Part shown: piece after piece, positions 2,104 to 27,047 of the stretch | Position numbering within the stretch: position 1 is the first letter of the stretch | How the letters are laid out: each line of letters opens with the position of its first letter | Origin: Escherichia phage vB_EcoS_SA126VB | Strand: one strand, 5' to 3' | DNA length: 61,753 nt | Sequence record: OL960573.1 | Position numbers and translations under genes: made by a program | Notes under the pieces: generated by a model | Told to the model about the DNA's origin: nothing | What the model saw: the letters and a program-made list of their open reading frames with translations, nothing else | Database searches by the model: none

Positions 2104-2114
2104 CTGGAGGGTAT

Positions 2115-3611
2115 ATGGGTATTGATGCAACTCACCCGCTATATGATAAGTGGAAGGGTGCATGGGTCAAGTGCAACGACTGCTATGAGGGTGAAGATAA
2201 AATTAAGGAAGAAGGTGTTAAATATCTACCGCCTTTAGCTTCCATGATTATTGATGGGATGAATAATCCTGATGATTTGGGCTTTCAACGTTGGCTCGCT
2301 TATCGTCTGCGTGCTAACTTCCCTGACGATTATTCAAGTGCGGTTACAAACAATTTAGGCCTGCTGCACCAGAAGCCTCCTACAATCCAGCTTCCACCTG
2401 AAATGGAATACATGCGGGAGCTGTGTACTGCGGACGGTGAAGACATTATTGCTCTGCTACGTCGCATCAATGAAATGCAGTTAAAAAATGGACGTTTGGG
2501 CCTGCTGCTGGACTTACCTAAAGGTGAGGATGTAAATAACAGACCTTATATTAGCGTTTATGATGCTTTATCCATTATTAACTGGGATGATGGTAAAGAT
2601 GAATTGGGCAATATCAACTTGAACATGGTTGTTCTGGATGAAAGCGGTCCTGTACGTGTCAATCAGTTTGACTGGAAAGAAGAGAAGCGTTATCGCGTTC
2701 TACAATTGGGTCCAATGGACACAGATGAAGTTGCAGGTGGGGCGGTCTACTCCCAACATCTGTTTATTAACAATACCAATTATGATGAAGGGCAAATGAT
2801 TGCTCCTTATTATAAAGGTAATACGCTGGATGAAATTCCTTTCCAGTTTGTCAATACAACAGATATTACCCCAGCACCGGAAGCGCCGCCATTGTTGGGT
2901 CTTGCTAACATTTGTCTAAGCATGTACCGAAGTGACGCGGATTACCGCCAAAGCTTGCATATGCAGGGTCAGGACACCTTAGTCGTTGTTGGTGGTACTG
3001 GGGAGAATGGGGATAAAGCCCCTCAACGCATTGGCCCTGGCGCTGTCATTAACGTTGCTATTGGTGGTGACGCTAAATATGTAGGTGTTAGCGGTGACGG
3101 TTTGTCCGAGCAACGTCTCGCACTAGCTGCGGATAAGCAAGAAGCCCAAATTAAAGCCGGGCAAATGGTAAACAACACCAAGAGCACGCAGGAATCAGGC
3201 GAAGCTATGAAAACGCGTATTGCTGCGCGTACAGCTAGCCTGATTCGAATTGCGTATACTGGTGCGGCAGGTTTGGAAAACTTGCTGAAGGTTTGCGCTA
3301 AATGGATGGGTGCTGATCCAGAGAAAGTTGTGGTTAAGCCTAATCTTGAATTTACCAAGAGCATGTTTAACGGTCAGGACTTTGTTCAAATTATTACTGC
3401 ACGCAACCTTAAGGCTCCGATCAGCTTGCAGTCTATTCATGGCTGGCTTGTTGATCAGGGCTTAACCACACTAAGCTTTGAAGAAGAAATGGCAATTCTT
3501 GAGGAAGAGCTTAAGAAGTGGCCTCTGCCCGATGATGCTAAGGCTGATTTAAACGCAGAGCAGCAAGTAAACAAAGATCCTAAGGAAGACAACGCTTCCG
3601 ATAAAGAATAG
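2115..3611 (+). CDS. portal protein
   Basis: 498 aa directly after terL; GGAGGG RBS before ATG 2115; canonical position. Confidence 0.75.
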   Translation: MGIDATHPLYDKWKGAWVKCNDCYEGEDKIKEEGVKYLPPLASMIIDGMNNPDDLGFQRWLAYRLRANFPDDYSSAVTNNLGLLHQKPPTIQLPPEMEYMRELCTADGEDIIALLRRINEMQLKNGRLGLLLDLPKGEDVNNRPYISVYDALSIINWDDGKDELGNINLNMVVLDESGPVRVNQFDWKEEKRYRVLQLGPMDTDEVAGGAVYSQHLFINNTNYDEGQMIAPYYKGNTLDEIPFQFVNTTDITPAPEAPPLLGLANICLSMYRSDADYRQSLHMQGQDTLVVVGGTGENGDKAPQRIGPGAVINVAIGGDAKYVGVSGDGLSEQRLALAADKQEAQIKAGQMVNNTKSTQESGEAMKTRIAARTASLIRIAYTGAAGLENLLKVCAKWMGADPEKVVVKPNLEFTKSMFNGQDFVQIITARNLKAPISLQSIHGWLVDQGLTTLSFEEEMAILEEELKKWPLPDDAKADLNAEQQVNKDPKEDNASDKE

Positions 3612-3706
3612 TTGCAACTTCCAAGTTGATTGGTTTATATTAACGAACACGGGGCTGGGACGGCTCAGCTCCAAAAACGTCACACGGGTGACAACGGAGA
3701 TAAGAA

Positions 3707-4579
3707 ATGAAAAAGAGTTCTGTAGCTATTAGTGTTGGTATGGCTTTAATTAATCCACGCGCTCGCGGTGAAGGTGATGTGGAACTGGAATACGAATATG
3801 CATCTGCGGAAGAGATCCCGGCAGAGTTTGCAACTCTTTACGCAGAGCAGGGCGGTAAATACGTTCTTGCAAAAGTTAAAGGTGTAGCCCCTGCTGATAG
3901 CGTTCGTCGTCTGGAAAGTGCGTTAGCTAAAGAACGTAACGACCATCGTCAGGTGAAGCAACAGATTAGCGCACTTGGGCGTCCGGTTGAAGAAGTCCTT
4001 GCGGACCTTGATCGTATCCCTCAACTGGAAGCTGCCGCTAACGGTAAAGGTACTCCGGAAGACATCGAAAAGATGGTTAAAGCCCGTCTTGCTCCGCTCG
4101 AGCGTCAATTACAAACTGTAGCAGCTGAACGCGATTCCGTTAAGCAGGAAATTGAAGGCTACCGCACTCGCGAAACTAAAGCGAAAATTAAAGACGCAGT
4201 TATTGCTGCTGCATCCGGTGCTAAGCTGCGTCCGTCTGCTATCGAAGATGCGGTGACTTATGCACAGTTGCAAATGACCGTCGACGAGAACGGCAATGTG
4301 GTTACGAAAGATGGGGCTGGTGTAACTCCATACCTGACTCCGGCTGATTGGCTGAACGAAATCCTTCCGAAACGTCCGCACTGGGTTGAAGGATCTGCTG
4401 GTGGCGGTGCGTCTGGTCCGGGCGCTGGCGGTCATCACGGTGAAGACCCATACAGTCACGACGGTTGGAACATCTCTAAGCAGATGAATCTCTGGAAAAC
4501 TAATCAATCTTTAGCTAAACGCTTAGCTGAAAAGAATGGCGTAGACCCGCTGAAGCCTGTACGTCCTGCTAAGAAATAA
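3707..4579 (+). CDS. putative scaffolding protein
   Basis: 290 aa, charged helical sequence between portal and major capsid genes; GGAGA RBS. Confidence 0.5.
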   Translation: MKKSSVAISVGMALINPRARGEGDVELEYEYASAEEIPAEFATLYAEQGGKYVLAKVKGVAPADSVRRLESALAKERNDHRQVKQQISALGRPVEEVLADLDRIPQLEAAANGKGTPEDIEKMVKARLAPLERQLQTVAAERDSVKQEIEGYRTRETKAKIKDAVIAAASGAKLRPSAIEDAVTYAQLQMTVDENGNVVTKDGAGVTPYLTPADWLNEILPKRPHWVEGSAGGGASGPGAGGHHGEDPYSHDGWNISKQMNLWKTNQSLAKRLAEKNGVDPLKPVRPAKK

Positions 4580-4580
4580 G

Positions 4581-4609
4581 TTGACATCCCGACGTCCCTG
4601 ATGTTAAGT
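4581..4609 (+). promoter_or_regulatory. sigma70-like promoter (TTGACA-17-TTAAGT) upstream of major capsid gene
   Basis: TTGACA at 4581-4586, 17-nt spacer, TTAAGT at 4604-4609; overlaps a 9-bp inverted repeat (CCCTGATGT/ACATCAGGG). Confidence 0.35.
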
Positions 4610-4701
4610 TTCAACACATCAGGGACACGGGTTCCTAAACAGCCTTCCACGGGGAAAGGCTACCAACAGTAAACAAATCAATCCTTTTCCTGGAGACAAG
4701 T

Positions 4702-5763
4702 ATGTCTAAATCTAAAATTATTCTACCATTTGGTCGTGGTGAAACTGACCTGACTCGTTTGAAGGATGTCATTGTCCCTGAGATCTTCACTGGTTATGTG
4801 CAGACGCAGACCGCCGAACTTTCTGCTCTGATCCAATCCGGTGCGGTTGTAATGGACGAGCGTTTATCTGCTAACCTTGCTGGTGCAGGTCTGACTTTTA
4901 ACGAGCCGTTCTATAACGACCTGAAAGATGAAGACGAAGATATCGCGGTTGATAAAGGCGATCCGTCCAAACCGTCTAACATTACTACCGGATCTGAAGT
5001 TCAGGTTCGTATGAGTCGTTCAAAATCCTGGGGTTCTGCGGATCTGGTATCTGCTTTGATCGGTAACGACCCAATGACCGCTATCGGTAACCGCGTGTCT
5101 GCGTGGTGGGTTCGCCGTCTGCAAGCTGCATACATCGCAACCTGGAAAGGCGTATTTGCTAATGCGAAGAAATCCCATAACGATGATCTGACGTTCGATA
5201 TTTCCGGTTCTTCATTTGTAAACAACCAGACCAACTTTACCGCGTCTAACTTCATCAACGCAACTGCAACGATGGGTGATGCTGCTCGCGGTCTGACTAT
5301 GATTATGGTACACTCTACCGTTCGTAACCGTATGCGTCAGTTGAACCTGATCGACTTCATTCCGGATGCTCGCGGTGAAACTCAGTTTGAGTATTATCAG
5401 GGCCTGCGTATTATCGAAGACGACTCCATGCCACACGATCCGTCTACTGGTGTGTTTGAAAGCTGGCTGTTCGGCCCGGGCGCAACTGCAATGGGTGCTG
5501 GATCACCGAAAGTTCCGACCGCTGTGGTGCGTGACGAAGCCGCTAACCAAGGCGCTGGTGAAGAAGTTCTTCACAACCGTGTTGAATGGATTCTGCATCC
5601 GGTTGGCCATGCTTGGGCTGCTGCTCAAACTGCTAAAGGTGGTCCGTCTAACGCTGCTACCACTAACAACCTGGCCCATGAAGATTCCTGGCGTCGTGCG
5701 TTCCCTGAGCGCAAGCAGCTTAAAGTTGCACGCCTGATTACTCGTGAGTATCAGGGTTCCTAA
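4702..5763 (+). CDS. major capsid protein
   Basis: 353 aa after scaffold gene, GGAGA RBS, followed by strong terminator; typical capsid size and position. Confidence 0.75.
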   Translation: MSKSKIILPFGRGETDLTRLKDVIVPEIFTGYVQTQTAELSALIQSGAVVMDERLSANLAGAGLTFNEPFYNDLKDEDEDIAVDKGDPSKPSNITTGSEVQVRMSRSKSWGSADLVSALIGNDPMTAIGNRVSAWWVRRLQAAYIATWKGVFANAKKSHNDDLTFDISGSSFVNNQTNFTASNFINATATMGDAARGLTMIMVHSTVRNRMRQLNLIDFIPDARGETQFEYYQGLRIIEDDSMPHDPSTGVFESWLFGPGATAMGAGSPKVPTAVVRDEAANQGAGEEVLHNRVEWILHPVGHAWAAAQTAKGGPSNAATTNNLAHEDSWRRAFPERKQLKVARLITREYQGS

Positions 5764-5794
5764 GGCTTCACTCAACGCCGCGCTGTAGTATTTT

Positions 5795-5822
5795 GGGGAC
5801 ATCTTATGTCCCCTCTTTTTTA
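5795..5822 (+). terminator. rho-independent terminator after capsid gene
   Basis: GGGGACAT-ctt-ATGTCCCC stem followed by TCTTTTTT. Confidence 0.7.
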
Positions 5823-5833
5823 GGAGAACAACC

Positions 5834-6157
5834 ATGCGTTATCAACGTTATGAGCGACATGACTTGATGGAAAAATCGTTGCAGGTGGAGCCAATTTCGA
5901 TTACTCTCAATCCTGCTACGATTGACACCACAACTTCAGAAGTAAAAACGGTTACTGTTAAAATAAACTTTGTCCCAGGCGGAACTACAAACAAAGCGTA
6001 TAGCGCGTCAGTTGACGGTTCCTCTGCTACAATTAAAGACAACGGGGACGGTACAATTACTGTGACCACAACCGAAAGCAGTGGTACTTCAAACTTGACA
6101 GTAACGTCCAAGGCAAAGGATAGTGTTACTGGTACATGTGTTATTAATGTGACCTAA
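5834..6157 (+). CDS. Ig-like (Big_2-type) domain protein, possible head decoration protein
   Basis: 107 aa, Thr/Ser-rich beta-strand pattern (TVTVKINF..TITVTTTE..LTVTSKAKD) typical of bacterial Ig-like domains; AGGAGAA RBS. Confidence 0.5.
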   Translation: MRYQRYERHDLMEKSLQVEPISITLNPATIDTTTSEVKTVTVKINFVPGGTTNKAYSASVDGSSATIKDNGDGTITVTTTESSGTSNLTVTSKAKDSVTGTCVINVT

Positions 6158-6173
6158 AAATAAGGATTAAACA

Positions 6174-6827
6174 ATGAAGACATTAATTGAAGCATTGTTA
6201 GAACTTGATCCGGATAACCCGAATCATTGGACTAGCGACGGTCTACCTAAAGTTGACGCTCTGCGTTTCGCTACCGCTAACCCGTCTTTAACTCGCGACG
6301 ATATTACAACTGCTGCTCCGCTGTTTACCCGCGATAACCGCGTGCTGGAAGAGCCCGAGTCAGTGGAACCTGTTAAATCTGCTGACCCAGTTTTACATGA
6401 AGCAGTTAAACAGGAGAAAGCTCATGAAGAACAAAAGAAAGTCGCGGTTGCAACGATGCAAATCGAAGTTAAGATTAGCGAAGCACTGCGTGCTCTTCTG
6501 GAGCCGGAAAAAATCGGTGACACTTCCAGCCTAAGCGATGAAGAGCTGAAAGCGAAGCGTGAAAAGCTTAGCAATGTGGTTAAAGAGATTGCCCACACTA
6601 AGCACGCGTTGGAGCTCGCTATCGCAGACGTTCAAGCGGATCTGGATAAGATTATCGTTGAGCAGGAGCGTCGTCGTCCTAAGTCCGGTCTTACTGCAAC
6701 TCAGATGTATCTTGAAGCGCAGAAAAAACGTAAACCGGAAGACATGCTTTCTGACCATCGCTTCCAGAACCCTATTGACGATCCTGTCGCCCGTATGGTT
6801 GCACGTAATATGATGCGTCGAGGTTAA
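6174..6827 (+). CDS. hypothetical head-module protein
   Basis: 217-aa ORF with AAGGA RBS, in head module. Confidence 0.45.
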   Translation: MKTLIEALLELDPDNPNHWTSDGLPKVDALRFATANPSLTRDDITTAAPLFTRDNRVLEEPESVEPVKSADPVLHEAVKQEKAHEEQKKVAVATMQIEVKISEALRALLEPEKIGDTSSLSDEELKAKREKLSNVVKEIAHTKHALELAIADVQADLDKIIVEQERRRPKSGLTATQMYLEAQKKRKPEDMLSDHRFQNPIDDPVARMVARNMMRRG

Positions 6828-6881
6828 CCATGGAAATGAGCCATAGACAATATGTGTTGTGGCTCCTCCGACGTAATAGAA

Positions 6882-6910
6882 AACGGCGTCAAGAAGACGC
6901 CGTTTCTGTT
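6882..6910 (+). terminator. stem-loop, possible attenuator or weak terminator
   Basis: AACGGCGTC-aagaa-GACGCCGTT followed by TCTGTT. Confidence 0.4.
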
Positions 6911-6965
6911 CCTGAAGAAGAGCTCCCGCCACTTATCCCTACAACCATCGCAATGAGGAAGAAAG

Positions 6966-7472
6966 ATGGAGATTCCACTGATAGTTGAAGATGGTACTGG
7001 TGTACCGGACGCCAACAGTTATGTCACCATTGAACAAGTCCGCATGTATGCCGCAATGCGAGGTATTGTACTTCCAAGTGAAGACGAAGATCTAAAGACA
7101 AAGATCTTTGACGCTATGGATTTTGTGGAAGGGTACAGCCAACGCTTTAAAGGTTATAAAATTGACCCACAGCAACCGCTAAATTGGCCACGCTACGGGG
7201 TGTTTGTGGATGGGTTCGAGCTACCCCAAAGCCCCTTACCAAAGGCGCTTATAAACGCTGTTTGCCAGCTTACAGCGGACTCAGCTACTAGCGGTCCTCT
7301 TAATGGGAAAACTACTGCATATGCAGTCAAAAGAACTAAAGTAGAAGGTCTTGAGATTGAATACGCAACTGGTAGCACAGCACAGTCAGGTCCAGCAAAA
7401 ACATATGATAAAGCTATGACGTTTTTATCACCTTTGCTGGGTTATCAAATGGGTAATAGATTGATACGGTGA
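6966..7472 (+). CDS. putative head-tail connector/adaptor protein
   Basis: 168 aa, position after head genes, GAGGAAG RBS; call by synteny. Confidence 0.45.
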   Translation: MEIPLIVEDGTGVPDANSYVTIEQVRMYAAMRGIVLPSEDEDLKTKIFDAMDFVEGYSQRFKGYKIDPQQPLNWPRYGVFVDGFELPQSPLPKALINAVCQLTADSATSGPLNGKTTAYAVKRTKVEGLEIEYATGSTAQSGPAKTYDKAMTFLSPLLGYQMGNRLIR

Positions 7473-7475
7473 TTT

Positions 7476-7856
7476 ATGAGCTTTCCTTACGAGCAGCTAG
7501 TTGAAGCTGCAAAGCAAATGATCAACGATGCTGGTGTTAACTGTACCCTTGTTGTTATGGAGCAAGGGGAAGGTCAAGATGAATGGGACGATCCGAGCGT
7601 TGAAAAACGATACCCATTCATTGGAGCTTTCCTTTCACCGAAGGAAAAGATGATTGGCGGCAGTCTTGTTTCTGCTGGTGAGCTGAAAGTGTTGACTTAC
7701 CCAATGACACCTCCATTGACTCGCGATAAAGCAATGACTGCACGCATTGAGCGTGTGTCACCGGATGGGGAACTGGAAGTGTGGACAATAAATGAGTTTG
7801 TTGATACACGACCAGCTAACGTTTCTGTTCTTTACACTTTTAAGGTGACGCGATAA
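7476..7856 (+). CDS. putative head closure/head-tail joining protein
   Basis: 126 aa, tightly packed in neck module; synteny. Confidence 0.4.
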   Translation: MSFPYEQLVEAAKQMINDAGVNCTLVVMEQGEGQDEWDDPSVEKRYPFIGAFLSPKEKMIGGSLVSAGELKVLTYPMTPPLTRDKAMTARIERVSPDGELEVWTINEFVDTRPANVSVLYTFKVTR

Positions 7857-8263
7857 TGGGATTCGGGGCGGATATTCGACGTGCAAGTCAGAAGGTACTT
7901 GTTCAGACAAGCGAGCAGGCCAAAAAAGTCGTTGTCAAGTTCACAGAGAACGTGATACAGGATACTCCTGTTAAGACCGGACGCACAAAAGGTGGTTGGC
8001 GGTCATCCATTGGTGCTCCGTATGCAACGGAAACTATCCGCCTCGATCCTACTGGAGAGATGGCTAAAGCTGAAGCCCGAGTTGTTGCACGCCAACTACC
8101 TAATGATAAAGACTGGACTTTCTACTTTAGCAACTTAAGCCCGTATGCTCCGAAACTTGAATATCTTGGTTGGTCGCAGCAAGCGCCAAATGGCATGGTG
8201 CGTATTAACGTAGCGAAGCTTCCAATGTTAATACGCCAAGCTATTGTAGAAGGAAAACTATAA
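7856..8263 (+). CDS. putative neck/tail terminator protein
   Basis: 135 aa, ATG overlaps previous stop; synteny. Confidence 0.4.
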   Translation: MGFGADIRRASQKVLVQTSEQAKKVVVKFTENVIQDTPVKTGRTKGGWRSSIGAPYATETIRLDPTGEMAKAEARVVARQLPNDKDWTFYFSNLSPYAPKLEYLGWSQQAPNGMVRINVAKLPMLIRQAIVEGKL

Positions 8264-14753: not shown

Positions 14754-15162
14754 AATGCCAGGATGGCAAACACGTTTATTAACCACAGTAAAGGAGCTGG
14801 CATCGACTCCTTTTTCTTGGGGCGAAAACGATTGCTGTACGTTTGCCGCTAAATGTGTTGATGCACAATACAACACAAATATTTATAATCAGATAGCAGG
14901 TAAATACCGCACAGAGCTTGGAAGCAAACGGTTCTCAATTGAAAAGGTTGGAACAACTTACCTTCCAACCTTGCTTGACGCTTACCTAAGTGAGCGCGTT
15001 GATAAGAACTTTGCGCAAAGAGGAGATGTGGTTACATTTGAGGGAGCATTGGGCTTAACCGCTGGCATATTATGGACGGGATATGTATGGGCTATGGGCC
15101 CGAACGGTGTGGAAACATTCCCGCTTAATAAGATCAAAATCACGGATATTTGGAGGGTCTAA
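14728..15162 (+). CDS. putative tail assembly protein, NlpC/P60-like (gpK-like)
   Basis: Start moved to ATG 14728 (GGGGGAG RBS; track start 14578 overlaps previous gene by 176 nt); ENDCC..GDVVTF resembles the NlpC/P60 Cys region. Confidence 0.4.
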   Translation: MRQGSRMSKMPGWQTRLLTTVKELASTPFSWGENDCCTFAAKCVDAQYNTNIYNQIAGKYRTELGSKRFSIEKVGTTYLPTLLDAYLSERVDKNFAQRGDVVTFEGALGLTAGILWTGYVWAMGPNGVETFPLNKIKITDIWRV

Positions 15163-17801
15163 TGCCACCAGCAATAATTGGAGCAGCAATAGCTTTAGGT
15201 GCTTCCGCTGCCGCTGCGGCGGGGTGGATTGCTACGGGCGTAGCTTTGGCTATTGGTATGGCTGCAACTGCGGCGGGTGCTCTTTTAACTAAGACACCTA
15301 ATATGAACTTTAATGCTTATAAAGGTCAACAAGAGCGTAAACAGGTTTTACGAGCAGCCGCAGCATCTCGAACAGTAGTGTATGGCACAACGGTTGCTTC
15401 CGGTGTTATGACGTTTGCCGAGGAGCAGCCTGGAGATCAGGACGAAGACGAACTCCTGCATATGGCTCTTGTTGTAGCTTCACATCCATTGGAGGGAATT
15501 GGTGATATTTGGCTTGGGGATGACCTTGTACAGACTTTCGAACAGTATGTCACTTGGGAATTTCATAATGACCGTCAGACGGTAGACCCTTTCATGCTAA
15601 ACAACTGTCCTTCATGGAAAGAAGATATGATTGGGAAAGGGATTGCCTGGCTTCGTATTAGTTTTAAGTTTAATGCAGAAAAATTCCCGTCTGGCTTGCC
15701 AAACATTAAGCTTCTTAAAAGAGGTCGCCGTGTATATGATCCTCGTTCTGGTTATACCATATTCAGCGATAATGCAGCGTTAGTGATACTTGATTACTTC
15801 CGCACGTATTTAAAGCGCAAAGATGAAGATATTAACTGGGACCAATTCAAAGAAGCGGCTAACATCTGTGATGAATACGTCAATAACGCTGATGGTTCTA
15901 CAGAGCGCCGTTATAAAATCAACGGTGAATTTGAAGTAGATGAAGCCCCATCCAAAATTCTGGATGCTATGTTGCAAGCATGTGGTGGCGAGCTAACGTA
16001 TGTAGCGGGTAAACACGGCCTTCTGGTTGGCGCATATTACGGCCCAGCAACAATGACGCTGGACGAAAGTTGTATTGCTGGGGATATTAAAATTGTTCCA
16101 GAGACTTCTTATAAGGAGCGCACCAACACCATTACAGGGACGTTTATTGATCCGAAGCAGAACTATGTTGAGGCGGACTTTCCTCCAGTTGTGGTCAAGG
16201 AATGGGTGGAAAAAGATGGCGGTGAAATAACTCAGGACATGGATTTCCGATTTGTAACAAGTGAATATCAAGCCCAACGTTTATCTAATATTATTCTACG
16301 TCGTAAACGTGTTGGGCGCACAATTGAAATCCCTTGTAACATGAAGGGTTATAAGTTCCGTCCAGGAATGTATGTAAAAGTTACCATCACGCAGATTGGC
16401 ATGAAGAATGTTGAAATGCGCGTTACCAAATGGTCTTTTAACCCTAAAGGTGGGGTTAACCTTACCTTACGTCAAGATTTCCTGGAAATGTGGGACGATG
16501 CAATTGGTAAACCTATGGACCGGCCGGATCTTGTAGACTTGCCAAGTGGTGGTGTTGCTCAACCTCAAAATCTTCAATACCAGATATTGCAGATTAGTGA
16601 TGTGGTACAGGGGGTATTATCCTGGACCAACATGGGGCAAGTTGCATATAACCGCGTAGCTGTGCGACAGGGAGGCGTTACTATTTGGACCGCACAAGTC
16701 CCTGGCCAAAGCGTTCGTGTCACTGGGTTGCTGCGTGGGGCGTATACTGCGCACGTTCAAGCTGTATCGCACAGTGGAGCAATATCACCGGAAGCTTATT
16801 TGGAGTTTAATATTCAAGCTCCACCGCCACCTTCATCTGTTGAGATACAGAACGGTTATTTTTCTTTAACTCTTATACCAAAGATTGCAGAGCTCACTAG
16901 TGTTAGCACACAATTTGATTTCTGGACGTCTGGTGAAACAAAACTGCCGTCTGCTAATACAGATGTTGTTGAGCGCGATGCGACCCGTGAAGGTATGGGA
17001 ACTATATGGCAGAAAAATAACTTACTCAATGACCACACTTATTACTGGTATGTAAGAACTATCAATGCCTTTGGGTCGTCCGCGTTTGTGGAAGTTGAAG
17101 CTCGTGTATGGGCAGAAACTGCACAGATCATAGAAATTATGGATAAAGAGTTTCAAGAAACTGAAACTTTCAAAAACCTTATGGAGACTGTGCAAAAGGT
17201 TGATGACGGTGTAACGGAATTGTCCAAAGTAGTTGAAGGACAAGCTACAAAAATTGAATCGGTTCAGAGTAGTGTGGGTGATGTTGTTGTTACCGTGCAA
17301 GAGCAATCGCAAGCACTAGCAGATCTTAATGGCAAACTTTCTGCTCAATGGGGACAAAAGGTTCAAATAGACAATGATGGCAACAAATACGTTGCAGGTA
17401 TGCAGTTAGGTATTGAAGGTAGCGGAGGACAATTCCAGTCTTACTTTATGGTGAGCGCTGATAACTTTGCTATTTATAATCCTGTAGCGGGAGCAGCACA
17501 GCTTGCTTTTGCTATTAAAAACGGTCAAAGTTTCTTACAAGAAGCTTTTATTGAAAACGGATCGATTACCAACGCTAAGATTGGTAATGTTATCCAGTCC
17601 AATAACTGGAATGGTAACGATCAAGGTTGGGCAATTACAAAAGACGGTTATTGCGTATTTAATAACGTAACCGTCAGAGGGACAGTTGTTGCTAACGCTG
17701 GTCAATTTGGTTTCAATGGAAATGGAGGTATTACAATTGATAGTAACGGTATTCGTGTTCCGCTATCAGGTGGTGGTGTTGTCATAGTGGGACGCTGGTA
17801 A
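15162..17801 (+). CDS. tail tip / host specificity protein (J-like)
   Basis: About 880 aa after minor tail genes; ATG 15162 overlaps previous stop (TAATG), track start 15150 is TTG. Confidence 0.6.
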   Translation: MPPAIIGAAIALGASAAAAAGWIATGVALAIGMAATAAGALLTKTPNMNFNAYKGQQERKQVLRAAAASRTVVYGTTVASGVMTFAEEQPGDQDEDELLHMALVVASHPLEGIGDIWLGDDLVQTFEQYVTWEFHNDRQTVDPFMLNNCPSWKEDMIGKGIAWLRISFKFNAEKFPSGLPNIKLLKRGRRVYDPRSGYTIFSDNAALVILDYFRTYLKRKDEDINWDQFKEAANICDEYVNNADGSTERRYKINGEFEVDEAPSKILDAMLQACGGELTYVAGKHGLLVGAYYGPATMTLDESCIAGDIKIVPETSYKERTNTITGTFIDPKQNYVEADFPPVVVKEWVEKDGGEITQDMDFRFVTSEYQAQRLSNIILRRKRVGRTIEIPCNMKGYKFRPGMYVKVTITQIGMKNVEMRVTKWSFNPKGGVNLTLRQDFLEMWDDAIGKPMDRPDLVDLPSGGVAQPQNLQYQILQISDVVQGVLSWTNMGQVAYNRVAVRQGGVTIWTAQVPGQSVRVTGLLRGAYTAHVQAVSHSGAISPEAYLEFNIQAPPPPSSVEIQNGYFSLTLIPKIAELTSVSTQFDFWTSGETKLPSANTDVVERDATREGMGTIWQKNNLLNDHTYYWYVRTINAFGSSAFVEVEARVWAETAQIIEIMDKEFQETETFKNLMETVQKVDDGVTELSKVVEGQATKIESVQSSVGDVVVTVQEQSQALADLNGKLSAQWGQKVQIDNDGNKYVAGMQLGIEGSGGQFQSYFMVSADNFAIYNPVAGAAQLAFAIKNGQSFLQEAFIENGSITNAKIGNVIQSNNWNGNDQGWAITKDGYCVFNNVTVRGTVVANAGQFGFNGNGGITIDSNGIRVPLSGGGVVIVGRW

Positions 17802-17811
17802 TGAAATATTT

Positions 17812-17833
17812 AAACGGGGCTCATGCCCCGTTT
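17812..17833. terminator. bidirectional terminator between convergent genes
   Basis: AAACGGGGC-tcat-GCCCCGTTT perfect hairpin with A/T-rich flanks on both sides. Confidence 0.65.
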
Positions 17834-17834
17834 A

Positions 17835-18800
17835 TTAATACATATTTGGTATAGCTATGAGTGGTGTTGAAATCACCACGTTACGACCGGGCATTTGGAA
17901 TTGTTGTCGCGAGTAGTTGCCTACCACGCGGTTTCTTGCAGCACCTACCACATTATCTGCCATGCGGATCCCGTTCATGCGAATATGATTATAACCTCCG
18001 TTGTTCTCAATAAGCGTGCCTGTGTATGCAAGCTGTATTAAGCTGTTACCAATATTTTGCCAGCCCGCGCTAAGATCTACTGTTCCGTTGAATACAAAAG
18101 GCTTCTTAACCGTGGAGAACGTAACCTGCCCCGCGCTGTTCGTCATGGTAATACCATCACCAGGCTGTGGAGGAGTGTTATTAAATATTACTAATTCCAT
18201 CCCAACAGAAGCTGATACGTCATCAATTCCACCATATGCTGCATTGCGAACAATAATATTCGAACCATCAAAACCTACTGACACGTTAGGGTCGTTCCAG
18301 CGAGCAAACGGAACACCACCGACAGGTAACGGTATACTGCCGTTAACCCATACGTACTGGGAATACTGACAAGTCATGAGAAAGGCTGCGTTGGATATTG
18401 CTGTAAAGTCCGTGGAGTTAGCAACAAATAGACCCTCGTTTCGCGTTCCTACAGGTAGCAGTTCCATAATCACCCCTGCCCATTGCGGCAGCCCACTATA
18501 GGCACCCAGTCCGTCCGCACCTCGCAACGTAACTCCACCGTCCCCGTTTCGGGTTACGGACGTCACATACATTGGATCCGGAATAACTAGCGTCTGATCA
18601 AATACTTCCAGTACTTCAACTGGGTTAGTCATAATAACGACATGCTGCGATCCTGGCGTCAGAGGTGTATTGATGGTTAGTGTTTTGTCAGATTGACATC
18701 GCTGATTGAAGTTAGCGCAAAAAGACGGGGCTCTCAATCCTGCTGTTATTTGCATTGCAGGTCTACCGTCATTGTAGTTTATATAAATACCCTCTGGCAT
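17835..18800 (-). CDS. hypothetical beta-rich protein, reverse-oriented inside tail module (possible receptor-binding or moron protein)
   Basis: 321 aa from ATG 18800 (GGAG RBS; track start 18836 is TTG); Gly/Asn/Thr/Val-rich; convergent with tail tip gene. Confidence 0.5.
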   Translation of the reverse strand: MPEGIYINYNDGRPAMQITAGLRAPSFCANFNQRCQSDKTLTINTPLTPGSQHVVIMTNPVEVLEVFDQTLVIPDPMYVTSVTRNGDGGVTLRGADGLGAYSGLPQWAGVIMELLPVGTRNEGLFVANSTDFTAISNAAFLMTCQYSQYVWVNGSIPLPVGGVPFARWNDPNVSVGFDGSNIIVRNAAYGGIDDVSASVGMELVIFNNTPPQPGDGITMTNSAGQVTFSTVKKPFVFNGTVDLSAGWQNIGNSLIQLAYTGTLIENNGGYNHIRMNGIRMADNVVGAARNRVVGNYSRQQFQMPGRNVVISTPLIAIPNMY

Positions 18801-18924
18801 AGTTACTCCAACAATGTGGTTAAAGATGATAGACAATATTGTTTTATATTCTAATTTAATTTACCATATTTATATGCCATAGTGCATCCATTAATTGATC
18901 AACTCTGCGAAACAAGAGGTAAAA

Positions 18925-21033
18925 ATGGCAACTCGTTTATATGGTATTCTGACGGATGGTTTAAATAAACCGATTGTTAACGCTACCGTCGCCCTTTTAG
19001 CAAAAGGGAACACAATTACCGTTCTTAATGGTAGTGAGGCTGTATTTCGTACAGACGGAGAAGGTGCCTATAATGTAACTGTGCAAGCAGGGCATTACAA
19101 AGTAATCATTGGACCACAGGGTCTTGAGCCTTATAAAGCTGGTGAGATAGTTATTTATTCCGACAGCCCTGAAGGTTCGCTAAACGGATATTTAATCAAC
19201 TGGGCTCCGGAAGAATTAACTCCGGACGTTATCAAACAAGTCCAGCAACTTGTGGCTAACTCTGAAGAATATGCTCTGCAAGCTGGTCGCTCTGCTGCCG
19301 CAGCAAACGCAGATGCTACGGACGCTCGCAATAGTAAGGCTTCCGCTGCTCAATCTGCTTCGGATGCACTTGTCTATAAAAATGATGCCAAAGCTAGCGA
19401 AGACGCTGCTAAACAAGCACAAGCTGGTGCTGCTGGTTCTGCTAACACTGCATCTCAAGCTGTAACCACAATTCAAGGTCTTAAATCTGACGTTGAGCAG
19501 TTAAAAACAGACACACAGGGTATTAAGGATAGCGCAGTAACGGAAACTACCGCGCTAAAAGACGCTGCTGCTGCTTCAGCTACGCAAGCAAGTAATAGTG
19601 CTGCCGAAGCAGGACAACAAGCTGGTAACGCGGCTGGTAGCGCAAATAGCGCTAAGGGCGACGCGGACCGTGCAAAGGCAGAAGCAGACCGTGCGGAAGT
19701 TGCAGCTAACAGGGCCCCGGATCTTCAACCTTTCCCTGACGTATGGATTCCATTTAATGACTCGCTTGATATGCTTGCAGGTTACTCGCCAGGGTATAAG
19801 AAAATAACAGTTGGTGAAGATGTTATTACAATGCCTTCTGATAAGGTTGTTAGTTTCTCGCGTGCGTCAAATGCAACATACATAAATAAGCATGGTGAAT
19901 TTTGCATTGCCAATATCGATGAACCTAGATTTGAAAAGCAAGGACTCTTGATTGAAGGCCAGAGGACAAATCACATTACTTTCAGTAATGACCCCGCTTC
20001 ATTAAATACAGATAAATACCGTAGTGATGTTACTTATAATGTTGATAAGTATGGTTTTGCATATGCAACGGCGACAGCAAACGAAAATTCACAAGGTGAG
20101 TATCCTTCATTATTTTATTGTGAAACAGTAAATGCAATCAACTGTCAGCAAAATGAATACGTTTCTTTATCTATACGAGTAAAGGCAAACTTGGATATCT
20201 ATATCACCCCACAATTTTATTTAGTAGGTGAGGATGGAGGTCTTATTCTTGGCGCTAGATCTTTCATAAGTTGCGAAACCGGCGAAGTTTCTTCTGTAGT
20301 AGAAGGGAGAGGGACTATAGCACATAGAATATATAGAGAAGACAACGGATGGTTGAAAGTTGAAGCTATGTGTAAATTTGTAGAACGTGGAGGTAGTTCT
20401 ATTGGATCTGTAAATTATTGTCGGAATAATGATCAACCTGTGCAAGTTGGGGATACAATATCATTTTGTACTCCGCAATTTGAAAAGGGTTTTTGTGCAT
20501 CCTCCTTCATTATTACGGGAAGCACGCCTGCAACAAGGGCTCTGGATTATGTTACTATACCTGCAAGAAATAATTTCTCAGGAACGAATATTTCATTCCT
20601 TGCTGAGGTAAGTATTAACTGGGATAGCTTTGAATTAGTTAATACATACCCGATGATAATGGATAACAGTAAATATAATATAGCAGGGGAATCTTTTGTA
20701 TCGGAGATGTTTATAGCTACAAGAGTGCCTAGCGTTTACTTTTTAAATAAGGAAACTGGACGTCCTACAGGCTCAAACGGAGCTTCATTTAGTGGTGTTG
20801 GCATCCCCTCCGTATGGGGTTTTATACATACAAAAAACGGGGATGTAACATCGTTTTTGAATGGTTTTAAGAATATAACATCCTCCGGTTCAACGTGGGA
20901 AGGACTATCTCCGGATTCCTTGCTGGAGATAGGCGGTAGACCTTCAGATCCAACTAAATTGTATGGTCATATTCGTAACCTTAGAATATGGAATCGAGTA
21001 TTAACGGATAGTCAAATGAGGGAGAAAGTTTAA
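18925..21033 (+). CDS. tail fibre protein
   Basis: About 700 aa; ATG 18925 with AGAGGT RBS (track start 18895 is TTG); Ala-rich coiled segment then C-terminal globular region. Confidence 0.55.
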   Translation: MATRLYGILTDGLNKPIVNATVALLAKGNTITVLNGSEAVFRTDGEGAYNVTVQAGHYKVIIGPQGLEPYKAGEIVIYSDSPEGSLNGYLINWAPEELTPDVIKQVQQLVANSEEYALQAGRSAAAANADATDARNSKASAAQSASDALVYKNDAKASEDAAKQAQAGAAGSANTASQAVTTIQGLKSDVEQLKTDTQGIKDSAVTETTALKDAAAASATQASNSAAEAGQQAGNAAGSANSAKGDADRAKAEADRAEVAANRAPDLQPFPDVWIPFNDSLDMLAGYSPGYKKITVGEDVITMPSDKVVSFSRASNATYINKHGEFCIANIDEPRFEKQGLLIEGQRTNHITFSNDPASLNTDKYRSDVTYNVDKYGFAYATATANENSQGEYPSLFYCETVNAINCQQNEYVSLSIRVKANLDIYITPQFYLVGEDGGLILGARSFISCETGEVSSVVEGRGTIAHRIYREDNGWLKVEAMCKFVERGGSSIGSVNYCRNNDQPVQVGDTISFCTPQFEKGFCASSFIITGSTPATRALDYVTIPARNNFSGTNISFLAEVSINWDSFELVNTYPMIMDNSKYNIAGESFVSEMFIATRVPSVYFLNKETGRPTGSNGASFSGVGIPSVWGFIHTKNGDVTSFLNGFKNITSSGSTWEGLSPDSLLEIGGRPSDPTKLYGHIRNLRIWNRVLTDSQMREKV

Positions 21034-21034
21034 A

Positions 21035-21301
21035 ATGAAAGATATTAATTTGCAATTTAAAGACGAAAAACATTATCGGGATGTTGTCATTAATAGTAAC
21101 TGGCTTAAGACAAACTACGGTAAAGTGTTTGTAGATGAAATTGGTTTTGTCCTCATAGTAGATGACCCGAAAAGTAGGACTCCAGTTGTCATTGGCAAAG
21201 AGGGTTATTATATAAACATAAGAATAATAGATAACAATGTAGACTTGTCAGAGCTTGAACAATTCATTATTAAGAACCCCTGTGTACGTAAATGGGCATA
21301 A
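21035..21301 (+). CDS. hypothetical protein (possible fibre assembly/accessory)
   Basis: 88-aa ORF between the two fibre genes. Confidence 0.4.
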   Translation: MKDINLQFKDEKHYRDVVINSNWLKTNYGKVFVDEIGFVLIVDDPKSRTPVVIGKEGYYINIRIIDNNVDLSELEQFIIKNPCVRKWA

Positions 21302-21311
21302 GAGGTGAACA

Positions 21312-23072
21312 ATGACTACTTATACTAATATTCCTCAGGACATTACAAAACTTAAATCCGAAAAGATGGATAAAAGTAATAACTTATCTGATCTTGCGGA
21401 CCGTGCTGCTGCGTGGTTAAACGTTCGACCAATTGGGTCTACACCATTAGCAGGAGACCCCGTTAGCGATTATGATGCAACAACTAAACGTTGGGTTGAG
21501 AACTTAATCAACACAGGTACAGTTGGTCCAACAATGAACGGGGTAATGAATTACGGGGTAGGGGATTTCCATCTTCGGGATAGTCGCGCTTACGTTCAAC
21601 CTTATGAGGTTACATCGGACGGGCAATTACTTAACCGTGCCGACTGGCCGGAATTGTGGGCTTACGCCCAAATGGTTGGGCTTATAGATGATAGTGAATG
21701 GTTAGCTGATAAATTCAAACGCGGCAAATATTCCTCTGGCGACGGAGTTACAACTTTCCGCGTACCAGATAAAAACGGTGTTCAGGAGGGATCTATTCGT
21801 GCGCTTTATGGTCGTGGTGATGGTGGAAACTCCTCTGCAAATGGGCAACTGTTCGAATCCGCTGCGCCTAATATTACAGGTTTTTTCACCACATATTCAG
21901 CTCAAACCTATGGCCAGGTATTAGGTCAAACTGGTGGTTGTTTTAACGCAAACAATAATGCTTTCCCTGAAGGAAAAGGCGAAGGAATCCCTCCAGGAAC
22001 TACAGCTCTTGCTGGACGTTACAACACCTGTGACTTCAATGCTTCAATTTCAAGTCCAATTTACGGCGCATCCACTGATGAAATCCTTACGCGCAACTTT
22101 GTCGGTGTGTGGGTAATCCGTGCGTCAGGTGGGTTTGTTGCGGCAAATACATCATGGAGTGTAATAAACGCTAATGCTGTCAAACCTTCTTCTGGAACAA
22201 TTGTAAGAGGGGGTAGTGTAAAATCAGAATACAAGATAGGTACGACTACCACACATCAAGCGTATTTGCAATCTTACGGAAAGATTGATGGATTGAGCAG
22301 CGAATCAGGGGCGGTGTTATCAAATGGTGTTCAGGAATGGGCATTTGGTCAGGATGGTACATTACGCCTTCCAAACGCAGAATTTCAGATCGGGACATTG
22401 AGAACTGATGGAGCACTACAGGTTGACGCATACATACGAGCAAAAGACTTCTACGCACAGCCGTTAAACTCTGTCGGCGTTTCTGCTATAGAAAGAAACG
22501 CCATAAGGATGATAAACTACGCCAATGTTGGAGAAGGGTATTTTGTAAACACTATAAGCGGCGATTGGTATGATGGAAGCTGGATTCTTGGTGGTATTCG
22601 CTCCGGTAGTACGTTGTTAGATAGGATGCAACTTAATGTCTCTGACGGAAGCGGAGGAGTTGCATCTTATCTTTTTGGGTCGGACGGTATAGCAAAATGC
22701 CAAGAATGGAGAAGTTTATCCGACAAACGCATTAAAAGTAATATTGAGCGTATAAACGATCCACTGTCCAAGATGCGGAACATTAAAGGCGTTAAATGGA
22801 CATTGGAAACAAATGGGTCAGTTGGGTATGGATTTATTGCTCAGGATGTAGAGAAGGATTTCCCTGAAGCAGTATCCGAAACAAAGTCCTCTCCTGTTAC
22901 CTTACGCAATGGTTCATCCGTGACTGATGTAAAGTCTGTAAACACTTCCGGTATAGCCGCAGCGCTACATCATGAAGCAATTCTTGCTTTGATGCAAAAA
23001 GTGGAGAACCTAGAAGCGGAATTAGCTGCACTAAAAGAAGCGAATGGTTCACAGCAAACTAACCTTCCATAA
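21312..23072 (+). CDS. tail fibre/spike with tail-collar-like N-terminal region and C-terminal S74-type intramolecular chaperone domain
   Basis: N-terminal LNRADWPELWAYA resembles the phage tail-collar motif; C-terminal SDKRIKSNIERI...KGVKWTLE...GFIAQDVEKDFPEAV matches the self-cleaving chaperone domain pattern. Confidence 0.65.
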   Translation: MTTYTNIPQDITKLKSEKMDKSNNLSDLADRAAAWLNVRPIGSTPLAGDPVSDYDATTKRWVENLINTGTVGPTMNGVMNYGVGDFHLRDSRAYVQPYEVTSDGQLLNRADWPELWAYAQMVGLIDDSEWLADKFKRGKYSSGDGVTTFRVPDKNGVQEGSIRALYGRGDGGNSSANGQLFESAAPNITGFFTTYSAQTYGQVLGQTGGCFNANNNAFPEGKGEGIPPGTTALAGRYNTCDFNASISSPIYGASTDEILTRNFVGVWVIRASGGFVAANTSWSVINANAVKPSSGTIVRGGSVKSEYKIGTTTTHQAYLQSYGKIDGLSSESGAVLSNGVQEWAFGQDGTLRLPNAEFQIGTLRTDGALQVDAYIRAKDFYAQPLNSVGVSAIERNAIRMINYANVGEGYFVNTISGDWYDGSWILGGIRSGSTLLDRMQLNVSDGSGGVASYLFGSDGIAKCQEWRSLSDKRIKSNIERINDPLSKMRNIKGVKWTLETNGSVGYGFIAQDVEKDFPEAVSETKSSPVTLRNGSSVTDVKSVNTSGIAAALHHEAILALMQKVENLEAELAALKEANGSQQTNLP

Positions 23073-26405: not shown

Positions 26406-26699
26406 CTAGCCCCCAAAAGTACCCCTATGATCAAGGGTGCTAATGCGCTTCTCCAGCCAACGTGCGTTCTTTTCAAAATGTTTATTGGTACGCGCTGCTT
26501 TGCACGCATCAATAATACCTAACTCACATCCAAGCTGCGTTTGTCCCATCACGTAAGAATGGGTTAACATGCTGGATACAAGCTCTTCGCATTGTAACTT
26601 AATAGGATGGTCTTGGCATAGTTTCTTTGCTGCATCTTTTAAATCCACAGCTTGGACACCAGGCGCTATCAGCAAAGTTACGAGTAATAAACGTTTCAT
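26406..26699 (-). CDS. secreted/periplasmic small protein
   Basis: N-terminal MKRLLLVTLLIAPGVQA signal-peptide-like segment; four Cys in mature part. Confidence 0.45.
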   Translation of the reverse strand: MKRLLLVTLLIAPGVQAVDLKDAAKKLCQDHPIKLQCEELVSSMLTHSYVMGQTQLGCELGIIDACKAARTNKHFEKNARWLEKRISTLDHRGTFGG

Positions 26700-26983
26700 T
26701 ATGCTTTCCCTTTACGACATAAGGCTTGAAGTTCCAGAAGCGCATCAATGTCTTCCTGTGGAGTTACACCGACGTGAATTGGATATTTAGCGCGACATTC
26801 GTAGCCAACTTCAACAGTGTGGTTAATGTAACCATAAACACATCCACCAATAACAGTGAAGATAAGCGCAACAATCATTGTAAGGTATTTACCTTGTTTG
26901 CGTTCTTCATTTTGTTTATTAAGCTGACGGTTAAGTTCCACCGCGTCGATTTTACCTTTGTTGTAATCGTCTACTAAGCTCAT
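26699..26983 (-). CDS. small membrane protein
   Basis: ATG 26983 with AAGAGGAG RBS (track start 27040 is TTG and lies inside a terminator hairpin); one transmembrane segment. Confidence 0.45.
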   Translation of the reverse strand: MSLVDDYNKGKIDAVELNRQLNKQNEERKQGKYLTMIVALIFTVIGGCVYGYINHTVEVGYECRAKYPIHVGVTPQEDIDALLELQALCRKGKA

Positions 26984-27010
26984 TTTGCATCTCCTCTTGT
27001 TGTATGCATA

Positions 27011-27037
27011 TATTAAAACAGACCCGCGAAGGGTCTG
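27011..27037 (-). terminator. rho-independent terminator after DNA polymerase gene
   Basis: CAGACCC-gcgaa-GGGTCTG followed on the minus strand by UUUUAAUA. Confidence 0.6.
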
Positions 27038-27047
27038 CAAGTGGAAT

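Follow-up and report, generated by a model that had tools for sequence, protein, structure and literature searches.

The leftward gene that interrupts the rightward tail module of phage vB_EcoS_SA126VB was analysed within its whole 61,753-nucleotide sequence (here called the window). From its sequence, the gene very probably encodes the dedicated terminal receptor-binding protein (RBP) of the phage, of the type that recognises LptD. The window is an essentially complete genome of an E. coli siphophage of the Queuovirinae (Seuratvirus-like), with a rightward structural module from about position 9 to 24936 followed by mostly leftward replication genes. A megablast search with positions 15000–22000 matched Queuovirinae coliphages: phiG7 (93% identity across the whole query), SA80RD (97.8% across the first two thirds), ECP2304, VogelGryff (Bas25) and ChristophMerian (Bas19). 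The closest relatives were isolated on a variety of hosts; SD04, for one, is recorded as a phage of Aeromonas. The features of the locus are as follows.

15162..17801, + strand: J-like tail-tip protein (879 aa, ATG start), on which the RBP presumably sits (Pfam, PHROG 31, annotation of Bas19 and Bas25)
17684..17801, + strand: last ~39 J codons, a segment peculiar to alleles whose RBP is a separate protein and the putative docking site (Dru_SM1/KurtStettler breakpoints, motif)
17811..17834, no strand assigned: bidirectional intrinsic-terminator-like hairpin, common to the convergent J and RBP genes (sequence, pattern scan, folding)
17835..18800, − strand: probable RBP gene, 321 aa, DUF6453 family, LptD type (Pfam, PDB match, Foldseek, dN/dS)
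18702..18800, − strand: RBP codons 1–33, a conserved N-terminal segment and putative J-tip docking adaptor (conservation, recombination boundary)
18801..18924, no strand assigned: AT-rich divergent intergenic spacer, presumed to hold the RBP (leftward) and fibre (rightward) promoters (composition, SA80RD annotation)
18925..21033, + strand: first lateral tail-fibre gene, 702 aa, the divergent neighbour (Pfam phage_tail_N, PHROG 1419)

The open reading frame listing gives the gene as 17835..18836 on the minus strand (333 aa, counted from a TTG). Starting instead at the ATG at 18800, which has a GGAG 5 nt upstream, gives exactly 321 aa, the annotated length in every relative compared; the full-length homologues in related phages are all 966 nt and begin with MPEG or MGAG. 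The stop codon occupies 17835–17837. The J-like gene ends with a TAA at 17799–17801 and the fibre gene begins at 18925, an order that matches the placement of the LptD-type RBP module. Every large neighbouring open reading frame between 9 and 24936 lies on the plus strand. The first-pass annotation had described a 321-aa leftward gene amid rightward neighbours, convergent with the tail-tip gene and divergent from the fibre gene, and the coordinates agree with it on each count. It had also described the gene as bracketed by a bidirectional terminator; the hairpin is present, but flanks the gene on its 3′ side only. The J-like gene matches the Pfam families Phage_Tail_Tip and Ig_J_second above their cut-offs and Ig_J and Phage-tail_3 weakly, below theirs. 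It falls in PHROG 31 (central tail fiber J), and its counterparts in Bas19 and Bas25 are labelled J-like tail tip protein, while the counterpart of the fibre gene in the same two phages is labelled lateral tail fiber.

The predicted protein belongs to Pfam family DUF6453 (PF20051), with a score of 436.3 bits (E = 7e-131) against a curated gathering cut-off of 25 bits, and with residues 4–297 aligned to profile positions 1–290 of 291. The literature on DUF6453 yielded one incidental mention only. A phmmer search of PDB sequences matched residues 2–321 to 9rpt_C, and also to 9rpw and 9rqi (E = 3.6e-162). Chain C of 9RPT, 9RPW and 9RQI is the RBP of the Dhillonvirus Oekolampad (Bas18; bas18_0025) (Dunbar et al., PNAS 2025, PMC12685063). 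The two proteins have the same length of 321 aa and are 75.4% identical over their full length without a gap; they diverge most at residues ~141–160, 221–260 and 301–320. Identity is 99.1% to the SA80RD protein, 98.4% to that of phiG7, 94.1% to that of ChristophMerian and 66.0% to that of VogelGryff, falling to 34% for Rtp44/AugustePiccard. The composition (G 10.9%, V 10.0%, N 9.3%, T 7.2%) and an AlphaFold2 model built with 33 homologues (mean pLDDT 82.8, pTM 0.84), which is all-beta, bear out the first-pass description of a beta-rich, Gly/Asn/Thr-rich protein. When this model was compared with the PDB by Foldseek, 9rpt_C was the sole significant match (E = 1.2e-32, TM 0.88 on the target) and the next had E = 0.07. 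The predicted fold is therefore distinctive, neither a beta-helix nor a lectin; the first-pass annotation had pointed to folds of those kinds, and neither finds support from Foldseek.

The assignment of the receptor draws on published work. The Oekolampad RBP was solved bound to the open state of the Shigella flexneri LptDE lipopolysaccharide translocon, with an interface on LptD of ~1,700 Å2 and 20 hydrogen bonds, one of them between RBP Gln299 and LptD Ser350; the tail-proximal part of the RBP was poorly ordered in the complex (PMC12685063). The sequence NYSRQQFQMPG around Gln299 is identical in the window protein and Oekolampad, this one named contact being what the interface comparison covers. 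Bas19 and Bas25 have a different loop around residue 299 and depend on LptD all the same. Maffei et al. (PLoS Biol 2021, PMC8594841) found seven small siphophages unable to infect two lptD loop-deletion mutants, among them Oekolampad, the Nonagviruses ChristophMerian and FritzHoffmann (Bas20) and the Seuratvirus VogelGryff, and assigned these LptD-dependent phages a common LptD-type RBP module downstream of gpJ. The window protein is thus close to alleles of phages shown to depend on lptD, at 94.1% identity for Bas19 and 66% for Bas25. For the Seuratvirus phiHS1, a preprint of 2026 identifies this gene as that of an RBP with homology to the LptD binder of Bas18, and calls the organisation typical of Queuovirinae. 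Given the Bas18 structure, the Bas19 and Bas25 genetics and the phiHS1 preprint, the identity of the gene and its probable receptor are already in the literature; papers from 2021 to 2026 have covered the structure, the receptor and the genomic logic of the family. Among the roles that the first-pass annotation had listed for the gene, receptor binding is the one favoured by its full-length homology to an RBP solved with LptDE.

Membership of DUF6453 does not by itself fix the receptor, because the temperate phage mEp021, whose gp80 is a 36%-identical homologue, needs OmpA for efficient plating: deletion of ompA strongly cuts its plating. A member of the family could accordingly use a receptor other than E. 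coli LptD, such as OmpA or the LptD variant of another host, and the divergence of alleles to 66% within the Queuovirinae, together with the varied isolation hosts of the closest relatives (SD04 included), would fit such a reading. For the window protein we consider it quite unlikely. It shares 94% of its residues with the Bas19 allele and 75% with the Bas18 RBP, each of them LptD-linked, so that the mEp021 caveat weighs little here, and the link to LptD extends to alleles as far removed as Rtp44/AugustePiccard (34%). The OmpA effect on mEp021 is also incomplete, and lptD is essential and absent from the Keio set; the mEp021 paper contains no occurrence of lptD. It may be that distant members of the family bind to other receptors, or that OmpA acts on plating indirectly.

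The roles of moron and superinfection-exclusion factor, which the first-pass annotation had offered beside receptor binding, fared worse. That the gene encodes such a factor, or a membrane protein, expressed independently of the virion genes, would agree with its reverse orientation, with its own terminator, with its PHROG 1265 match ('membrane protein', filed under 'moron, auxiliary metabolic gene and host takeover') and with some GenBank records that say 'membrane protein'. The protein, however, has no signal peptide, lipobox or hydrophobic, potentially transmembrane segment (maximum 19-residue Kyte–Doolittle mean 1.15), which makes the PHROG label misleading, and its solved homologue is soluble and binds LptDE from outside. 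Exclusion lipoproteins such as Cor, Llp and Rtp45 are ~60–80 aa long and carry a lipobox cysteine; at 321 aa and with no such cysteine, the window protein is not of this kind, and a search with it of PHROG 4281, 1119 and 12984 gave no match. The true exclusion genes of these cassettes encode separate lipoproteins of 73–77 aa (PHROG 4281, 12984). A prophage homologue lies directly after J, within the tail operon, and the mEp021 homologue is annotated as a virion structural protein. Taken together, these points leave the moron or membrane reading scarcely any probability. We give just as little credence to a spurious open reading frame, or to an accessory tail or fibre-assembly protein without a receptor role, for which the 'hypothetical protein' label in nearly all records of the homologues might speak. 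The dN/dS of the gene is 0.13 against SA80RD, 0.05 against phiG7 and 0.06 against Bas19, at synonymous divergences of up to 0.49; a homologue is present in 347 phage records (among them Dhillonvirus, Drexlerviridae and Klebsiella phages) and in Citrobacter, Salmonella and E. coli chromosomes. With this selection, the full-length Pfam match and a 75%-identical homologue solved in complex with its receptor, the spurious frame was rejected, and with it the lack of conservation that the first-pass annotation had named as the sign of one. Two antisense open reading frames inside the gene contain stop codons in Bas25 and Oekolampad and are not conserved. No virion proteomics for Queuovirinae were found in the literature.

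An RBP of the LptD type is thus by far the preferred reading, and the surroundings of the gene can be considered in its light. The gap between the stop codons of J and the RBP gene is 33 nt, nearly all of it taken up by a hairpin, AAACGGGGC-TCAT-GCCCCGTTT (17812–17833), to which a T–A pair at 17811/17834 can be added as the tenth. The stem is a perfect 9–10 bp with six G–C pairs and a 4-nt loop. It folds with −18.0 kcal/mol on the plus strand and −17.8 kcal/mol on the minus strand (z = −3.5 and −4.2; 0 of 200 shuffles were as stable). The T-rich tails are TTTATTAAT on the plus strand and TTTAAATATTT on the minus strand, three stem-closing T's being counted in each, and a pattern scan found the hairpin terminator-like on the minus strand. 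A GC-rich stem-loop with T-rich tracts on both strands, placed between convergent genes, is what would be expected of a bidirectional intrinsic terminator, so that the 9-bp-stem bidirectional hairpin proposed in the first-pass annotation is well supported at the sequence level. Oekolampad, Rtp and ChristophMerian each have a hairpin of another sequence in this place, and SA80RD and mEp021 have an annotated terminator. Conservation of the position without conservation of the sequence argues that the hairpin is functional.

On the other side of the gene, the spacer between the RBP ATG (18800) and the fibre ATG (18925) is 124 nt long and ~72% A+T, compared with 55.8% for the whole window, and is as AT-rich as had been noted in the first reading. 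It is the slot where other phages carry an exclusion lipoprotein gene. A plus-strand promoter is annotated at this position in SA80RD. In a scan of the spacer for sigma-70 promoters, nothing on the minus strand reached 9/12, and the best match on either strand scored 8/12; that on the minus strand was TTAGAA-17-TATCAT (18854..18826). Since the minus strand of the spacer has no strong sigma-70 match, a leftward promoter is presumed; the layout makes independent leftward transcription of the RBP gene plausible.

The same order of J, hairpin and leftward RBP gene recurs in Oekolampad, Rtp, mEp021, Bas19, Bas25, phiG7 and SA80RD, so the comparison with related phages that the first reading had proposed shows both the gene and its layout repeated. 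In Oekolampad the rightward J gene is followed by the hairpin and the leftward RBP gene, and a gene for a 73-aa lipoprotein, bas18_0026, lies upstream of the latter on the same leftward strand. In Rtp the order is rtp43 (J), rtp44 (RBP) and rtp45 (lipoprotein), and in mEp021 it is gp79 (J), an annotated terminator, gp80 and gp81. Rtp45 acts in superinfection exclusion, binding LptDE and displacing its loop EL4 (PMC12685063), and the mEp021 lipoprotein excludes mEp021 when carried on a plasmid (mEp021 paper). The label of mEp021 gp80, 'virion structural protein', is an annotation; the structural proteins of mEp021 were mapped by mass spectrometry, with 16 identified and gp80 unconfirmed. Because Oekolampad, Rtp and mEp021 all have it, leftward orientation is the normal layout of an exchangeable cassette of exclusion gene and RBP gene. 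In Citrobacter lambdoid prophages, the DUF6453 gene is co-oriented with J, begins 2 nt after it and is followed by another tail gene, so orientation is neither intrinsic to the family nor diagnostic of it. The gene reads leftward as part of an exchangeable cassette, and its direction is no indication of a moron.

The locus departs from this cassette in one respect. The exclusion lipoprotein gene found upstream of the RBP gene elsewhere (Rtp45/bas18_0026, PHROG 4281) is absent here, and the 124-nt spacer leaves no room for it; this is the only point of the locus that is even mildly unexpected. The lipoprotein is a frequent companion of the RBP and does not define the module, as Bas19 and Bas25, accepted members, also lack it at the locus. 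Bas19, Bas25, phiG7 and SA80RD, four Queuovirinae loci orthologous to that of the window and identical to it in layout, all have spacers of 116–124 nt between the RBP and fibre genes and no exclusion gene. A tblastn search of the whole 61.7-kb window with bas18_0026, Rtp45 and the Dru_SM1 lipoprotein gave a best E of 0.06, on the wrong strand. A regular-expression scan for lipoboxes in all six frames of the window found no credible candidate. Of two candidates that were considered and set aside, that at 17861–18013 (+) is antisense to the RBP gene and not conserved, and that at 26699–26941 (−) looks like a single-pass membrane protein (PHROG 26834). In the spacer, a blastn-short comparison with the exclusion region of Oekolampad gave only chance matches of 7–8 nt in place of a remnant of the gene. 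The PHROG 4281 lipoprotein family occurs in 378 phage records, and none of 40 sampled records had a genome of Queuovirinae size. Judging by these five loci, the window included, Queuovirinae seem to lack the cognate exclusion lipoprotein.

The exchange of alleles at the locus was followed by comparison with VogelGryff. Nucleotide identity is 94–100% as far as the end of J, drops to 50–71% at 17900–18699 and is 87–96% again from 18700 through the spacer. The RBP allele of VogelGryff, of a different sub-type, is thus swapped from ~17800 to ~18700 only, with J, the RBP N-terminus and the spacer 87–100% identical. At the amino acid level, 27 of the first 33 residues are identical but only 185 of the remaining 288. 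In the alignment of 33 homologues, many columns are invariant in residues 1–25 and 123–135, yet the model is least confident at residues 1–21 and 119–136 despite this conservation. We infer that residues 1–33, and perhaps also 119–136, form a surface that docks to J and becomes ordered only on the virion, which would fit the disordered tail-proximal part of the RBP in the solved Oekolampad complex. The comparison further suggests that residues ~34–321 are an exchangeable receptor-binding body. A possible second body on the same adaptor, in the Citrobacter phage HCF1, was set aside: it matches RBP residues 1–34 only, but the truncated stub overlaps J and the assembly is unverified.

A different replacement is seen in Dru_SM1 and KurtStettler (Bas22). 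These phages have the same slot between J and the fibre gene, with a leftward gene and the same backbone flanks, but their J is ~100 aa longer, the leftward gene encodes a 77-aa lipoprotein (PHROG 12984) and there is no separate RBP. Similarity to the window ends at 17683/17649 and resumes at 18925; since it stops inside J, the alternative cassette takes in the last ~39 J codons. The last 40 J residues of the window share the motif G.F.F.G...I...G..V.LP.GG.V.VG.W/F with the J proteins of Oekolampad (15 of 40 identical) and Rtp. Over the last ~250 residues, the window and Oekolampad J proteins are only ~33% identical.

A mechanism consistent with these results would run as follows. The RBP gene would be transcribed leftward from the 124-nt spacer that it shares with the lateral-fibre gene, and its transcript would end at the same hairpin that may terminate the rightward tail operon after J. 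The soluble, all-beta RBP would then sit on the C-terminal tip of J, held there non-covalently by its own N-terminal ~33 residues, with residues 119–136, conserved but poorly modelled, perhaps joining in. The first contact with the cell, as known from published work, is reversible binding of the lateral fibres to surface glycans. The terminal RBP would then bind LptDE, as shown for the 75%-identical homologue, and this would commit the phage to DNA ejection. The cassette of Dhillonvirus, Rtp and mEp021 consists of a leftward exclusion lipoprotein gene and then the RBP gene, and the window would hold the RBP half only.

Among the closest known systems, Oekolampad shares the fold, the position on the opposite strand after J and the convergent hairpin, and differs in its exclusion lipoprotein gene directly upstream of the RBP gene. 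In the Drexlerviridae, Rtp44/AugustePiccard belongs to the same family and also lies in a leftward cassette after J with a hairpin, and AugustePiccard is of the LptD type by genetics; the Rtp cassette again includes the exclusion lipoprotein that the window lacks. Pb5 and Llp of T5, with FhuA as receptor, were likened to this system by the authors of PMC12685063: pb5 is a tail-tip RBP whose tail-proximal part is poorly ordered on the receptor, and T5 pairs it with a small exclusion lipoprotein. The receptor is of a different class, however, and there is no detectable similarity of sequence or fold, pb5 being absent from the 50 Foldseek matches listed, so pb5 is an analogue only.

How the Queuovirinae came to this arrangement can be proposed only tentatively, and we hold the following account as somewhat less probable than even. 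The Queuovirinae would have captured an LptD-type cassette without its exclusion lipoprotein, so that the orientation of the RBP gene is a fossil of an ancestral operon of exclusion gene and RBP gene. Such phages would either do without receptor masking or have an unrecognised exclusion factor elsewhere, and the boundary at RBP codon ~33 would mark a portable retargeting adaptor. One possible reason to forgo masking is that the RBP binds only the rare open, active state of LptDE.

For the phage, the RBP gene would decide which outer-membrane protein is used for commitment to infection, as already described for close relatives. Because LptD is essential and conserved, RBPs that bind it attract interest in phage therapy, in phage steering and in the design of LptD inhibitors. 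The analysis also has corrective value: in most records the gene product is 'hypothetical' or a 'membrane protein', and PHROG 1265 places it among the morons, where the label should read LptD-type receptor-binding protein. For host-range engineering, two features of the locus may be of use, namely the absence of an exclusion gene from it in the five Queuovirinae genomes compared and the clean boundary for a swap after the first ~33 RBP codons.

No homologue of an exclusion lipoprotein (PHROG 4281 or 12984) was found in the spacer (18801–18924) between the RBP gene (17835–18800, minus strand) and the fibre genes, nor elsewhere in the window. In other phages these lipoproteins are companions of the cassette containing the RBP, the LptD-type receptor-binding protein, or of an alternative allele. 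A similarly short spacer between RBP and fibre genes is present in Bas19, Bas25, phiG7 and SA80RD. The corresponding region was compared in the following records.

Loci compared with the RBP locus of the window
Dru_SM1 (L005), 1663–4876: alternative allele in the equivalent slot
KurtStettler (L007), 1663–4889: alternative allele in the equivalent slot
mEp021 (L009), 1762–2915: lipoprotein and DUF6453 cassette
Citrobacter prophage contigs (L010 and L011), 2825–8199: DUF6453 gene context in lambdoid prophages
Citrobacter phage HCF1 (L012), 3001–3102: RBP-family stub

In Dru_SM1 and KurtStettler, the flanking backbone on either side of the slot between J, the tail-tip gene, and the fibre gene matches that of the window. 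J is longer by about 100 aa than in the window, and a leftward gene for a 77-aa lipoprotein takes the place of a separate RBP. In HCF1, an RBP-family gene is reduced to its first 34 codons (82% identity), which overlap the end of J; as the entry carries an unverified-assembly flag, the stub is either the result of a deletion or an artefact of assembly.

The arrangement also differs in the Citrobacter lambdoid prophages, where the DUF6453 gene lies on the same strand as J, starting 2 nt past it, and is followed directly by a gene for a Phage_tail_C_2 protein. No reverse-oriented cassette was found in 2825–8199 of either contig. The lptD gene is essential, and is absent from the Keio collection. 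Despite its lipoprotein and DUF6453 cassette, mEp021 has been reported to depend on OmpA; the mEp021 paper credits receptor recognition to J, does not raise gp80 as an RBP and makes no mention of lptD.

Database labels for the RBP family are misleading. PHROG 1265 is categorised as ‘moron ... membrane protein’, RefSeq labels homologues ‘membrane protein’, the mEp021 record notes a ‘putative flagellar hook-associated protein FlgL’, and the PDB entry for a homologue is named ‘Tail fiber protein’.

Two further loci of the window were considered.

Other features of the window
18925–21033, 21035–21301 and 21312–23072, plus strand: lateral fibre genes
26699–27040, minus strand: small ORF, PHROG 26834 (function not assigned in PHROG)

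The fibre locus is a mosaic across families, as judged by nucleotide similarity. From about 19390–19490 on (noted stretch 19492–22000), it is 85–92% identical to T5-like phages with genomes of 97–118 kb (FFH_1, AKFV33, Lindwurm, SP15 and WP85), instead of matching most Queuovirinae. The third fibre gene (21312–23072) encodes a Peptidase_S74 intramolecular-chaperone domain. A like T5-type fibre mosaic was described for Seuratvirus phiHS1 in a 2026 preprint.

The small ORF directly precedes the DNA polymerase gene. Its product has a charged N-terminus followed by a single hydrophobic segment ending in VIGGC; it resembles a single-pass membrane protein, or possibly a lipoprotein. No similarity to known exclusion proteins was found.

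Homologues of the Oekolampad-type exclusion lipoprotein, 32–43% identical, occur in phiEco32-like podophages (records of 70–78 kb: phiEco32, ManiMatter/Bas94, SU7 and relatives), and SU7 also has a weak match to the RBP (23.5% over residues 111–321). These similarities hint that LptD-related modules also occur beyond siphophages.
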